Part shown: positions 17,339 to 43,614 of the stretch, in pieces
How the letters are laid out: every line of letters starts with the position of its first letter
How positions within the stretch are numbered: position 1 is the first letter of the stretch
Sequence record: OM386662.1
Source: Escherichia phage vB_EcoM_ESCO47
Direction: 5' to 3' (one strand)
Length of the DNA stretch: 64,000 nt
Notes under the pieces: model-generated
The model's database searches: none
What the model saw: only the letters and a program-made list of their open reading frames with translations
What the model was told of the DNA's origin: nothing
Program-made: the position numbers and the translations under genes

Positions 17339-17379
17339 GTTTACAATGTTATAGGGCTATGTTATAGTAGTCCTATCAA
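17339..17379 (+). promoter_or_regulatory. T4-type early promoter
   Basis: GTTTAC -35, ~17 bp, TGnTATAGT extended -10, conserved CCTATCAA start region. Confidence 0.55.
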
Positions 17380-17405
17380 AACAAAACCAAATTAAAGGAA
17401 ATAAA

Positions 17406-17717
17406 ATGAAAACTTATCAAGAATTTATCGCCGAAGCTTCTGCTGCGCCAAAGACATTCATTATTAATACTCAGGTAGGTCTTGACGATGAGTATGCGGA
17501 TGCAATTCTGAAGTCACTTGCTAAGAACGGCGTTGAAGTAATCGCTTCGGACTTTAAGAAAGGGGCTTCCGAGATGTTTATTTCTATAACTAAAGGATCT
17601 AAAGCTAAGATCAAATCATCGTTCGGAGTTGCTCGCACCGATCAAATCGACAGACATGACTTTAAACAAACCGGTGTTAAACGACAGAACACAATTGCAT
17701 CACGTGGAATAAAATAG
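17406..17717 (+). CDS. Internal head protein (IpI-like) with capsid targeting sequence
   Basis: N-terminus MKTYQEFIAEA = T4 internal-protein capsid targeting sequence with LxE prohead-protease site; own early promoter. Confidence 0.7.
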   Translation: MKTYQEFIAEASAAPKTFIINTQVGLDDEYADAILKSLAKNGVEVIASDFKKGASEMFISITKGSKAKIKSSFGVARTDQIDRHDFKQTGVKRQNTIASRGIK

Positions 17718-17730
17718 TTTCACAAACCAT

Positions 17731-17771
17731 GTTTACTTTTAGATGGGGTAGTGATACTATTACCCTATCAA
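17731..17771 (+). promoter_or_regulatory. T4-type early promoter
   Basis: GTTTAC ... TGATACTAT ... CCTATCAA. Confidence 0.55.
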
Positions 17772-17820
17772 AACAAAACATCCAAATGGAAACTAAAATG
17801 AAAACATATCAAGAATTTAT
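17752..17820 (+). repeat. 69-bp direct repeat (promoter, leader and first codons of an internal-protein gene), copy 1
   Basis: Identical to 18095-18163. Confidence 0.8.
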
Positions 17821-18070
17821 CTCCGAATCCAGCCTTAATGAAGAAGTAAAAATTAACAAACCCGTTAAGGCTATTATCGATAATATAAACTATCTTTATA
17901 ACATCGATCTTACAAACTATATATTGATAGGCAATAAACGGAACTTTTTTACATTTGATATCTCGGAACTTGACCAGAATCAAATCAATAATATTGAACG
18001 CTTTGCTAATGACAAAGGGTTACGCCACGAGACAGCCGGCTATAAAAAATATGCAATTTATCTAAAATAA
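17798..18070 (+). CDS. Internal head protein family member (capsid targeting sequence)
   Basis: Start set at MKTYQEFISE (ORF-track start 17729 is upstream); 69-bp leader repeat shared with next gene. Confidence 0.65.
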   Translation: MKTYQEFISESSLNEEVKINKPVKAIIDNINYLYNIDLTNYILIGNKRNFFTFDISELDQNQINNIERFANDKGLRHETAGYKKYAIYLK

Positions 18071-18073
18071 ATT

Positions 18074-18114
18074 GTTTACAACGGGCTCTAGTGGTGATAC
18101 TATTACCCTATCAA
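18074..18114 (+). promoter_or_regulatory. T4-type early promoter
   Basis: GTTTACAACGGGCTCTAGTGGTGATACTATTACCCTATCAA. Confidence 0.55.
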
Positions 18115-18163
18115 AACAAAACATCCAAATGGAAACTAAAATGAAAACATATCAAGAATTTAT
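18095..18163 (+). repeat. 69-bp direct repeat, copy 2
   Basis: Identical to 17752-17820; adjacent 44-bp promoter block 18071-18114 also recurs at 18366-18409. Confidence 0.8.
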
Positions 18164-18365
18164 TGCAGAAGCTAAAAGACATGAAGATGAACTGCCTTTT
18201 GTTTCAAAAACCGTTGTTGGAACATTGGCTGATTTTAAAAAAATTCCTAATGATAAACTTGCTAAATTGGTTGGTTCTATCAGTGAAAAAGGTGGCAAGG
18301 TCACATTTACTGCTCAAGGCACAGCCAATCTTAAAAAACTTTTGAAAGCAGCTGGTGTTGAATAA
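18141..18365 (+). CDS. Internal head protein family member (capsid targeting sequence)
   Basis: Start set at MKTYQEFIAEAKRHEDE; identical promoter/leader repeat as previous gene. Confidence 0.65.
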   Translation: MKTYQEFIAEAKRHEDELPFVSKTVVGTLADFKKIPNDKLAKLVGSISEKGGKVTFTAQGTANLKKLLKAAGVE

Positions 18366-18368
18366 ATT

Positions 18369-18409
18369 GTTTACAACGGGCTCTAGTGGTGATACTATTA
18401 CCCTATCAA
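18369..18409 (+). promoter_or_regulatory. T4-type early promoter
   Basis: Exact repeat of promoter at 18074. Confidence 0.55.
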
Positions 18410-19298: not shown

Positions 19299-19330
19299 GA
19301 AATTGTTTTACTGACAGTAAAAATGATTAA

Positions 19331-19357
19331 TTTGCTTTAAGAATTATGTGTTATTAT
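19331..19357 (+). promoter_or_regulatory. MotA-dependent middle promoter candidate (upstream of tRNA cluster)
   Basis: MotA box TTTGCTTTA, 12 bp, -10 TATTAT. Confidence 0.45.
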
Positions 19358-19418
19358 TAATAAGTACCCTCTATTACCAAAGGTTCTTCCCTCAAAGAGC
19401 CTTTCATAATAGAATTAT

Positions 19419-19493
19419 GGCCCTTTAGCTCAATGGGAGAGCTGTCAGCTCATAACTGATAGGTAGCTGGATCGAAACCAGCAAGGGTCACCA
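19419..19493 (+). tRNA. tRNA with CAU anticodon (Met or lysidine-modified Ile)
   Basis: Manual cloverleaf: acceptor GGCCCTT/AAGGGTC, D-arm GCTC..GAGC, anticodon loop CTCATAA, T-stem GCTGG/CCAGC, 3' CCA encoded. Confidence 0.75.
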
Positions 19494-19497
19494 ATTT

Positions 19498-19569
19498 GGA
19501 TGCATAGCTCAGTGGTAGAGCAGTTGACTGTTAATCAATTGGTCCATGGTTCGAATCCATGTGTGTCCG
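19498..19569 (+). tRNA. tRNA-Asn (GUU anticodon)
   Basis: Manual cloverleaf: D-loop AGTGGTA, anticodon loop CTGTTAA, T-arm CATGG-TTCGAAT-CCATG; acceptor with G-U pairs; no encoded CCA. Confidence 0.7.
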
Positions 19570-19576
19570 CAAATTA

Positions 19577-19652
19577 CGAGGCATAGCTCAGAAGGAAGAG
19601 CAAGGACCTTCTAAGTCCTAGGTCGTAGGTTCGATCCCTACTGTCTCGACCA
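19577..19652 (+). tRNA. tRNA-Arg (UCU anticodon)
   Basis: Manual cloverleaf: acceptor CGAGGCA/TGTCTCG, anticodon loop CTTCTAA, T-loop TTCGATC, CCA encoded; T4 also carries tRNA-Arg(UCU). Confidence 0.75.
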
Positions 19653-19813
19653 AACAAGAAACCGGGTCGCTACCGGCAAGTCGTCGGACTGATGTTCCCT
19701 GTTTAAGGACTGGCATTAACAAATCTTTATGTTTTGTTAATGCCCCCTTACATCACAACAGAAACGGCGCATTGAACACTTACCTAGTAGGTGGAAACCC
19801 CGACAAGGTATAT
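19653..19813 (+). ncRNA. Candidate small structured RNA downstream of tRNA cluster
   Basis: Non-coding stretch with perfect 12-bp hairpin (19712-19744) ending at intrinsic terminator; T4 encodes small stable RNAs at the equivalent position. Confidence 0.3.
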
Positions 19814-19842
19814 AGCCCCTTCCGAAAGGTTGGGGCTTTTTT
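19814..19842 (+). terminator. Intrinsic terminator after tRNA/small RNA region
   Basis: AGCCCC-TTCCGAAAGGTT-GGGGCT followed by TTTTTT. Confidence 0.7.
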
Positions 19843-19843
19843 G

Positions 19844-19851
19844 TATAAATA
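19844..19851 (+). promoter_or_regulatory. T4 late promoter
   Basis: TATAAATA immediately after terminator, 36 nt upstream of ORF 19887. Confidence 0.55.
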
Positions 19852-19886
19852 TAGTAAACAATAAACCTACTTTCTAAGGACCATCA

Positions 19887-20507
19887 ATGTATACCTTTAA
19901 TGAATTTTTAGCCGAAACGGAAGTAATCACCGAAGCCGGTGTACGTATGACAAAAGAGAAATGGCAAGCTGCTTACGACGCTATTTCTGGTACAAAAACT
20001 AGTACAGAGTTTTTCAAAAACGTTCAAGCCATGTACGGTATCGACACTTCCAGCCAAAAAGAATATTACAGAGCTTCTAAAGCATTCAAAGATATTGTTA
20101 GTGGTGGTGTTTCTGCTAAATCAGGTTCGCCTAAAGTAAAACCTGCTCCTACCATTCCTAAACCTGCGTCCCCTAAAGCAAAACCTGAGCCTAAGCCGGA
20201 AGTAAAAGCAACTCCTAAAGCTCCTGCTCTTAAGTTTGATACTTCTAGCCTGGAAAAAAAATATAAACAACTATCTTCGCTTGTTCGTGATATTGAATCT
20301 GATACATCTTCACTCGTTCGTGAATTCAATAGTCTTCGTAATGGCCAACATATCAACAACCTTGATACCCCAGACCTTTATCGTCTTTATTTGACTATCG
20401 AAGGTTTGAAGTACACTCAACCACTTCATGATGAGATTAAAGAAAAACTTCGTCAAGCAGGTCGTTTGGCTGCTGACGCTGCTCAGTATGCAAAAACTCG
20501 TAAGTAA
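19887..20507 (+). CDS. Hypothetical protein with CTS-like N-terminus and Pro/Lys-rich linker
   Basis: MYTFNEFLAETE resembles the capsid targeting sequence; KPAPTIPKPASPKAKPEPKPE linker; late promoter TATAAATA upstream. Confidence 0.55.
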   Translation: MYTFNEFLAETEVITEAGVRMTKEKWQAAYDAISGTKTSTEFFKNVQAMYGIDTSSQKEYYRASKAFKDIVSGGVSAKSGSPKVKPAPTIPKPASPKAKPEPKPEVKATPKAPALKFDTSSLEKKYKQLSSLVRDIESDTSSLVREFNSLRNGQHINNLDTPDLYRLYLTIEGLKYTQPLHDEIKEKLRQAGRLAADAAQYAKTRK

Positions 20508-43200: not shown

Positions 43201-43614
43201 ATGAATATTTCTGAAACTCGCGGTAAATGGTTCAAGATTGTTAAAGAAGATGAAGAACTACAAGCCAAGTTTCCTGAATTAAAGAAAGGAACAATCATCA
43301 AGGTAATTGGTATTTCAACAACGGCTGACCTGTCTGGTGGCATCGTTGAAGTGATGTTGTCTACTGGCGAGAAACTTTGCATCAACGACCGTGATATTGG
43401 TTTTTGGTGTTTCTGGGAATCTGATTCAATAGATGAACTCGAAGAAATTGACCAAGTAGTTCGTGACAGTGAACTACTTGGTGAATTCGAAGGGGAACGT
43501 ATTTCTTATGCTTTAGCTAAATTAGCCGCACAAGAAAATAATGACGGCTATGAAGGTAATCTGATGCAAGCCGCAGCGGAATACATTGAATATTTAGAAA
43601 GACGTTTAAGTTAA
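43201..43614 (+). CDS. Hypothetical acidic protein
   Basis: Start chosen at third ATG with GGAG RBS. Confidence 0.45.
   Translation: MNISETRGKWFKIVKEDEELQAKFPELKKGTIIKVIGISTTADLSGGIVEVMLSTGEKLCINDRDIGFWCFWESDSIDELEEIDQVVRDSELLGEFEGERISYALAKLAAQENNDGYEGNLMQAAAEYIEYLERRLS

Follow-up and report, generated by a model that had tools for sequence, protein, structure and literature searches.

What kind of locus surrounds the three tRNA genes at 19419–19813 in Escherichia phage vB_EcoM_ESCO47 (record OM386662.1), and what is the structured, non-coding RNA of about 160 nt that follows them? The region was studied within a 64,000-nucleotide stretch of this record, referred to here as the window. The reading that best explains the data, with a probability of roughly 0.85, is that 19331–19842 would constitute one transcription unit of a T-even (Mosigvirus-like) phage and the counterpart of the T4 tRNA operon. 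Homology suggests that a MotA-type middle promoter would start the transcript, that a stable 5' leader hairpin would come next, followed by three tRNAs packed head to tail and by an orthologue of T4 rnaD beginning 2 nt past the CCA of tRNA-Arg, and that a conserved trailer hairpin and an intrinsic terminator would end the unit. As in T4, the precursor would presumably be cut by host RNase P, an endonuclease such as RNase E and 3' exonucleases, with the CCA-adding enzyme also used, giving mature tRNAs and a stable rnaD RNA as products. The elements of the proposed unit are:

19331–19357, plus strand: T4-type middle (MotA-dependent) promoter, predicted from sequence and conservation
19370–19413, plus strand: 5' leader hairpin of the tRNA precursor, from fold and conservation
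19419–19493, plus strand: tRNA-CAU, most likely tRNA-Ile2 (ARAGORN; RF00005, 58.4 bits), CCA encoded
19498–19570, plus strand: tRNA-Asn (GUU) (ARAGORN; RF00005, 71.8 bits), CCA not encoded
19577–19652, plus strand: tRNA-Arg (UCU), AGA reader (ARAGORN; RF00005, 66.0 bits), CCA encoded
19654–19774, plus strand: rnaD orthologue (species 2 or band D RNA), 121 nt, from homology and a covariance model
19777–19793, plus strand: trailer hairpin CACUUAC-CUA-GUAGGUG, found in 19 of 19 loci
19798–19808, plus strand: trailer block CCCCGACAAGG, invariant in 19 of 19 loci, for whose collection it doubled as the anchor
19814–19842, plus strand: intrinsic terminator of the tRNA/rnaD unit, from fold and conservation, with the stem at 19814–19837 and the U-run reaching 19842

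The closest overall relatives of the window are the Mosigvirus (RB69-like) T-even phages, with ~89% identity over 20 kb, and the same 20-kb comparison found no near-identical record. Upstream of the tRNAs, the gene order assigned with PHROG is that of T4, comprising 57B, three internal-head-protein (ip) genes, trna.4, trna.3 and trna.2. The tRNA/rnaD locus itself is a mosaic in which the nearest relative differs module by module: S16 for the CAU tRNA (99% identity), IME08 for tRNA-Asn (95%), mar005 and VR5-type copies for tRNA-Arg (100%), RB3 for rnaD (97%) and mar005 for the trailer (99%).

The MotA-type promoter that the initial annotation had placed at 19331 is borne out by conservation. 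It consists of a MotA box, TTTGCTTTA (19331–19339), a 12-bp spacer and the −10 element TATTAT (19352–19357), and the box, the spacer length and the −10 element are invariant in T4, RB3, IME08, mar005, S16, and PM2. The candidate agrees with what we take to be the middle-promoter consensus, a MotA box (a/t)(a/t)(a/t)TGCTT(t/c)A followed after 11–13 bp by a −10 TAnnnT, and transcription would be expected to start near 19364. In T4, transcription of the tRNA cluster reportedly starts at a middle promoter just upstream and terminates after the species I RNA (PMC2330249). The window candidate occupies the position homologous to the T4 site, and the predicted promoter at 19331–19357 corresponds to the one reported there. 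The leader hairpin that follows is composed of an outer stem, UCUAUUA/UAAUAGA, and an inner stem, AAAGGUUCUU/AAGAGCCUUU, and ends 5 nt upstream of the first tRNA. It folds at −17.6 kcal/mol (z = −7.15, with 0 of 200 shuffles as stable) and is conserved from T4 through S16.

Exactly three tRNA genes were identified by ARAGORN in the 64-kb window, with anticodons cat, gtt, and tct, separated by spacers of 4 and 6 nt. All three were also accepted by the Rfam tRNA family RF00005, well above its gathering score of 29 bits, so that the tightly packed CAU, Asn-GUU, and Arg-UCU cloverleaves described initially are upheld by two predictors. The first of these is labelled "Met" by ARAGORN because that program relies on the anticodon alone. 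It is most likely a lysidine-dependent tRNA-Ile2 reading AUA, not a tRNA-Met, because it has the GGCCC acceptor start in common with T4 tRNA-Ile (the T4 counterpart is annotated as isoleucyl-tRNA), because it is 79% identical to the Stx-phage ileZ gene, annotated as tRNA-Ile, and because 12 of 12 sampled matches in E. coli (4543 records hit) are annotated as tRNA-Ile. Its acceptor stem, GGCCCUU/AAGGGUC, contains the pairs C4-G69 and C5-G68, which we take to be determinants for TilS. The T-loop, AUCGAAA (A54, A60), is unusual and is the same in the 99%-identical S16 copy. In tRNA-Asn the discriminator G at 19569 is not followed by CCA (GCAAATT), whereas the tRNA-Asn genes of the four other loci compared encode GCCAAAT; this gene would therefore need the host CCA-adding enzyme, on which some T4 tRNAs likewise depend. 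The tRNA-Arg adjoining rnaD belongs to two unrelated lineages across phages, in contrast to the nearly invariant 5' block of rnaD beside it.

Through these genes the phage would add decoding for AUA (by the lysidine-modified CAU tRNA-Ile2), AGA, and AAY. In the 60 ORFs of the window, AUA occurs at 9.2 per 1000 codons, AGA at 7.2 per 1000, and the Asn codons at 59.5 per 1000; in E. coli, where AUA and AGA are the scarcest codons, the corresponding values are about 4–5 per 1000 for AUA and about 2 per 1000 for AGA. As both are commoner in the window than in the host, the tRNA set fits codon supplementation. That the three tRNAs mainly replace host tRNAs lost to anticodon nucleases or host shut-off, rather than matching codons, appears unlikely. 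Asn and Arg tRNAs are among the targets of colicin E5-type and colicin D-type nucleases, and replacement of cleaved host tRNAs is reportedly discussed for phage tRNAs in general by van den Berg et al. (2023); however, the set matches the very codons over-used by the 60 window ORFs, and the anticodon loop of the window tRNA-Asn, CUGUUAA, presumably does not differ from the host type in any way that would clearly allow escape.

The sequence downstream of tRNA-Arg was described initially as a structured non-coding RNA of about 160 nt, and this description proved apt. Folding of the 161 nt between 19653 and 19813 gave −49.7 kcal/mol (z = −3.83), a stability that 0 of 200 shuffles matched, and the stretch can now be divided into an rnaD orthologue (fold z = −3.95 for 19654–19774) and a conserved 3' trailer. 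The identification of the structured RNA as the orthologue of T4 rnaD rests on homology: 19654–19774 is collinear with annotated rnaD of RB3 (97% identity) and T4 (86%) over at least 95% of the length, and a covariance model of rnaD matched the window at 136.2 bits (E = 6e-36) over positions 1–121. As in RB3, T4, and IME08, where the gap is 1–2 nt, the RNA begins directly after the tRNA, 2 nt past its CCA in the window. No Rfam family reached threshold over 19653–19813, and a search of 19300–19900 at permissive thresholds returned only chance-level matches outside the tRNA family, the best being PyrR (21.5 bits against a gathering score of 54), NsiR1 (17.5 against 39), and CRISPR-DR27 (17.9 against 35).

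A BLAST search of GenBank with 19653–19850 matched ~741 phage records, most of them in two pieces ~350 bp apart that lie under features annotated as rnaD and rnaC. The window has only the first of these genes. From 19775 on it aligns collinearly with the trailer and terminator found downstream of rnaC in other phages, the 139-nt rnaC of T4 is absent, and rnaD is joined directly to the trailer (GGCGCA-TTG-AACACTT); nor was GGGTTCGAATCCCGG, the tRNA-like T-arm motif of rnaC, found between rnaD and the trailer. All rnaC-less loci examined share the window's junction in the form GGCGCA-nnG-AACACTT, and the polymorphism therefore looks like a single indel event. A junction-spanning query retrieved 30 GenBank records with the rnaC-less layout, as compared with ~741 that carry rnaD, all from the JS98/JS10/IME08/VR5 group. 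The 30 are at most 88.9% identical to the window, and in none of them does any annotation cover the RNA. More diverged copies were recognized by the covariance model in Citrobacter phage Moon (28.6 bits), Pectobacterium phage PM2 (28.0 bits), and a metagenome contig (48.8 bits). rnaD is not universal at tRNA loci: neither S16 nor PKO111 yielded a copy in the 2.5 kb around its CAU tRNA. A two-block pattern of the rnaD core had no match in 185,579 bacterial and archaeal genomes, which gives no host counterpart at that stringency. Pattern matches in IMG/VR to the rnaD 3' block or 5' core were dismissed as chance, as they lie on unrelated contigs with no model match and no tRNAs.

The trailer hairpin carries a compensatory change among the 19 loci, being A-U in the window and mar005 and G-C in the others. 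Block CCCCGACAAGG, further downstream, repeats the motif that the 5' arm of the terminator shows in T4 and RB3; pairing of the block with GUUGGGG (19829–19835) would be possible. The terminator noted initially at 19814 folds as AGCCCC-UU-CC GAAA GG-UU-GGGGCU followed by U6, its stem of 8 pairs being interrupted by two U.U mismatches and capped by a GAAA loop. The first U of the six-U run (19837–19842) closes the stem. A simple consensus terminator scan missed this site because of the internal U.U mismatches, but the structure is conserved after rnaC or rnaD in T4, RB3, IME08, and mar005. The late-promoter motif of the downstream gene, TATAAATA, is placed after the terminator. The same simple scan reported a minus-strand "terminator" at 19677–19661, which is helix P1 of rnaD read backwards beside the A-rich leader.

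An RNAalifold consensus of 19 distinct rnaD sequences revealed five helices, whose plus-strand positions in the window are:

19661–19665/19673–19677, plus strand: P1, 5-bp hairpin with the loop GUCGCUA
19680–19686/19765–19772, plus strand: P2, 7-bp closing helix, GUCGUCG with 3' CGGCG-CA(C/U)
19693–19696/19757–19760, plus strand: P3
19697–19699, plus strand: CCC bulge
19700–19708/19746–19755, plus strand: P4
19712–19723/19733–19744, plus strand: P5, apical hairpin, whose apex is too variable to align across the family

P1 is thus a short hairpin at the 5' end, and the remainder of the RNA forms a long rod closed by P2. This conserved five-helix fold is well supported. Across the 19 sequences, 96.7% of the cells of the consensus are paired, against 33–50% with slid partners, and six of the 24 pairs show compensatory double changes, among them the P1 closing pair 8:24 (AU 13, GC 4), 40:112 in P3 (UA 11, AU 6), and 51:103 in P4 (AU 7, GC 6). 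With 30 distinct sequences, double changes are seen in 12 of the 24 pairs, in an alignment that was fitted to the covariance model and so leans toward structure. Independent single-sequence folds of the T4, Moon, and PM2 RNAs recover the same architecture; the Moon and PM2 copies build P1 from different bases, and their P2 pair 33:117 is flipped from G-C to C-G. The consensus fold lies 0–4.9 kcal/mol from the minimum free energy (MFE) structure in 19 of 19 sequences.

Constraint is unevenly distributed over this structure, being concentrated in a nearly invariant 5' block (~45 nt) and the CCC-bulged stem, with P5 the least constrained part. The apex of the RNA is represented by three unrelated sequence types, each of which forms a hairpin. 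In the window P5 is the perfect 12-bp hairpin at 19712–19744 to which the initial annotation drew attention, its arms, GGCATTAACAAA/TTTGTTAATGCC, being 100% complementary around a 9-nt loop; only about three hairpins of this size occur in the 64-kb window. Among copies with the window-type P5, 91.7% of this helix is paired and two pairs show double changes. All of the family helices are able to form in the window allele, which departs slightly from the family: the closing pair of P1 is mismatched (A.C), 27:124 is a G.U, and the 3' triplet is UUG where other copies have CCA, CCG, CCU, or CAG. Its MFE structure is an alternative pairing 3.6 kcal/mol below the family fold, inside the family range. 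The internal loop GGACUGA/GAAA changes in Moon and PM2, for which reason a kink-turn or CsrA-site reading of it was discarded. A tRNA-like (acceptor/T-arm) rnaD was also rejected: ARAGORN and Rfam found none, the P1 loop GUCGCUA has neither T-loop nor anticodon-loop signatures, and the 3' CCA that T4 and RB3 encode gives way elsewhere to CCG, CCT, CAG, or TTG.

The species 2 RNA is a stable phage RNA known since the 1970s and, like rnaC, among the oldest of phage small RNAs. A literature search that included the older RNA names found no functional study of species 1 or 2, and the roles of RNAC and RNAD are given as unknown in reviews and papers (PMC3014915, PMC9697503, PMC12685909). Both are described as accumulating late in T4 infection, with a Northern blot (for which an RNAC probe is described) cited as validation (PMC9697503). 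That the 160 nt after tRNA-Arg might be a mere 3' trailer, a decayed tRNA pseudogene, or a small coding or attenuator region is highly improbable. Such a reading would accommodate the lack of an Rfam family at threshold (PyrR, at 21.5 bits against 54, was the best non-tRNA match) and the two short ORFs that overlap the region, 19772–19864 on the plus strand and 19618–19722 on the minus strand. Against it stand the homology over the full length of an RNA that the T4 reference record lists as small and stable, the reported late accumulation of the T4 counterpart (PMC9697503), the covariation in support of the fold, and the late-promoter motif that the downstream gene has of its own past the terminator. 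Neither ARAGORN nor Rfam found a cloverleaf in the 160 nt, and small ORFs over rnaD were ruled out by the replacement of the apical region with unrelated sequences and indels, which is incompatible with a conserved ORF.

The choice then lies between an RNA that acts on its own precursor and one that acts elsewhere. A purely cis-acting rnaD, serving as a 3' cap or ordered-processing guide of the tRNA precursor with its stability a by-product, seems to us rather doubtful. It would account for the fact that rnaD is invariably located within a tRNA cluster or at its 3' end, only 1–2 nt downstream of a tRNA CCA in the case of the window, RB3, T4, and IME08; in the MFE structure of the window the 5' CCGGGUCG is able to pair with CGACAAGG of the trailer, and reviews report no role for the RNA (PMC3014915). 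In mar005 and other Mosigvirus loci, however, a 345-bp ORF separates tRNA-Arg from rnaD, yet rnaD is 92% conserved. The near-invariance of ~45 nt also exceeds the need of a generic protective hairpin, whereas the largest hairpin, P5, varies freely, and every line of a T4-like phage that was evolved on a single host, ECOR34, acquired a convergent rnaD SNP (PMC12685909), a result that hints at effects specific to the host. We favour, tentatively, the possibility that rnaD is a trans-acting, protein-binding stable RNA with the invariant 5' block and the CCC-bulged stem as the putative binding surface, because P1, P2, and the CCC stem are where constraint on the sequence itself, beyond that on the structure, is concentrated and because rnaD stays conserved when parted from tRNA-Arg (by the ORF in mar005) or from rnaC (in the window). 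As the window and ~30 GenBank phages retain rnaD without rnaC, rnaD would work independently of rnaC. The fuller version of this trans-acting reading, in which rnaD would be an autonomous RNA with a specific partner bound through the P1/AA/P2 block and the CCC stem, and with the apex as a neutral spacer, is a long shot as it stands; candidate partners under it would be a late protein of the phage or a host protein involved in RNA processing or defence. With rnaC absent, no tRNA-like element lies downstream of rnaD to define its 3' end in the window, and the mature RNA could be ~121 nt, or ~190 nt if it reaches the terminator.

For annotation, these results indicate that the CAU tRNA should read tRNA-Ile2 and that a 121-nt rnaD gene should be added to the window, as well as to ~30 genomes of the JS98 group. 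New here are the covariation-supported fold of rnaD, the extension of the family to Moonvirus and Mosugukvirus, the finding of neither an Rfam family nor a bacterial counterpart in the searches above, and the natural uncoupling of rnaD from rnaC. The fold, range, and uncoupling are useful for mutant design and leave the picture of the locus unchanged; its value lies in better annotation (tRNA-Ile2 and rnaD) and in providing an old orphan RNA with a well-supported fold. If the trans-acting reading is true, the rnaC-less phages would be the cleanest background for finding the function of rnaD, after ~50 years without one.

Comparison with known loci places the window among T-even phages. The T4 record (NC_000866, 70908–72530) lists eight tRNAs, segB, rnaD (species 2), and rnaC (species 1), confirming the eight tRNAs and two small stable RNAs that had initially been given for the equivalent locus. 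Like the window, the T4 locus lies downstream of 57B, the ip genes, and trna.4/.3/.2, has the same middle promoter and leader hairpin, carries rnaD directly after tRNA-Arg, and ends in the same trailer hairpin and terminator. The window differs in having three tRNAs, not eight, in lacking segB and rnaC, in a tRNA-Arg of different lineage, and in its tRNA-Asn, which was correctly described at first as missing from the T4 set. The initial view of a reduced and different set thus holds for the number of tRNAs and the loss of rnaC; it does not hold for the structured RNA, which corresponds to T4 rnaD. The "different set" of tRNAs is, moreover, already present in sequenced phages, as JS98, JS10, and IME08 carry Met(CAU)-Asn-Arg.

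The organization in Dhakavirus (JS98, JS10, IME08, VR5) is identical to that of the window: CAU tRNA, tRNA-Asn, tRNA-Arg, an rnaD-like RNA, trailer, and terminator. Here, too, rnaC is absent, and rnaD joins the trailer at the same junction. Three tRNAs each have been reported for JS98 and JS10 (PMC2993671). Most Dhakavirus members differ from the window in the type of apical hairpin, in an rnaD that is only 76–77% identical, and in a different allele of the CAU tRNA; VR5 is the exception, with a window-type apex and an rnaD 94% identical. The Mosigvirus phages (RB69, mar005P1) share an identical tRNA-Arg, the trailer and terminator (99%), and the downstream ORF (97%) with the window, but their order is CAU tRNA, tRNA-Arg, a 345-bp ORF, rnaD, and rnaC, so that, unlike the window, they lack tRNA-Asn and retain rnaC. 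Further afield, ileZ of Stx-converting lambdoid phages is 79% identical to the CAU tRNA of the window, in an unrelated type of phage without an rnaD-like RNA. It is accompanied by the Arg tRNA genes argN and argO, and both sets would supply decoders of the rare codons AUA and AGA/AGG. RB3, T2L, and RB1 resemble the window in carrying tRNA-Asn and a tRNA-Arg of the same lineage, followed by an rnaD 97% identical (PMC2330249); RB3 differs in having ten tRNAs (including Asn) and rnaC after rnaD. Taken together, these comparisons indicate that the three-tRNA and rnaD operon of the window is ordinary for its phage group, and that the locus is a new mosaic example of a long-known kind of element.

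Three internal-head-protein genes (PHROG 2667, 7673 and 8765) lie in tandem upstream of the tRNA operon, each preceded by a repeated cassette of ~97 nt, and all three products start with MKTYQEFI(A/S)E, the capsid-targeting signal of T4 internal proteins. A second repeat, also found ahead of trna.4, looks like a T4 early promoter in its sequence. The repeats, together with two elements that follow the operon, are located as follows.

Repeats and promoter-like elements flanking the tRNA operon (window coordinates)
17356-17452, 17748-17844 and 18091-18187: ~97-nt repeated cassette
17723-17771, 18066-18114 and 18361-18409: second repeat, TTGTTTACA...GGTGATACTAT
19844-19851: late-promoter motif TATAAATA, directly 3' of the U-run of the terminator
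19887-20507: 206-aa ORF of PHROG 2280, a group without assigned function

The motif TATAAATA, the T4 late-promoter consensus, is located upstream of the 206-aa ORF, the N terminus of which (MYTFNEFLAE) is similar to the internal-protein targeting sequence, and this ORF may encode a further injected head protein. The longest hairpin-type repeat of the whole window is an inverted repeat at 43446-43487 (AATTGACCAAGTAGTTC / GAACTACTTGGTGAATT; 17 nt, 94% complementary, with an 8-nt loop).

Within the operon, the trailer heptamer CCCCGAC (19798-19804) repeats the terminator 5'-arm motif in its T4 and RB3 form and is complementary to GUUGGGG in the terminator 3' arm (19829-19835), such that the two could pair. 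The 5' segment CCGGGUCG of rnaD (19662-19669) is likewise able to pair with the trailer segment CGACAAGG (19801-19808), as it does in the minimum-energy fold of 19653-19813. These complementarities may mean that the precursor can adopt alternative pairings, or they may be what is left of a duplicated terminator.

The tRNA locus seems to be an insertion hotspot. In the closest Mosigvirus relatives, tRNA-Arg and rnaD are separated by an inserted 345-bp ORF (1161-1505 in L003, mar005P1), and in one relative, AV116, a homing endonuclease is annotated within the matched region. SegB is reported to cut preferentially within tRNA-Asn (PMC2330249).

Three contigs (L011, L012 and L013) contain an extra segment, AAGCCGTCGTATGAAGACTGATTACCAGCATTCACCGGCGCAAC, after a T4-type tRNA-Arg and ~65 nt upstream of rnaD; from its sequence, this looks like a second, internally deleted rnaD copy ahead of the full one. 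Downstream of the rnaD-like element of Pectobacterium phage PM2, a tRNA T-arm-like motif, GGAGTTCGAATCTCC, was observed at about 3725-3760 of L032, where no tRNA is annotated in the record, and this region may be an rnaC-like element. A metagenome contig provided an rnaD copy of intermediate divergence, ~110 nt downstream of a putative long-arm tRNA (judged by eye), which helps to widen the family alignment.

rnaD copy in the metagenome contig (L037)
LAHS01003206.1, 54-168, minus strand: rnaD copy, 48.8 bits with the rnaD covariance model

At the 3' boundary of the window tRNA-Asn (19569-19576), CAAATTA comes next, so CCA is not encoded, whereas four related loci have CCAAATA. The T-loop of the CAU tRNA (19470-19476) reads AUCGAAA, with A54 and A60 in place of U54 and a pyrimidine; it is shared with the Salmonella phage S16 copy, whereas the PM2, PKO111 and Moon copies have the canonical UUCGA loop.
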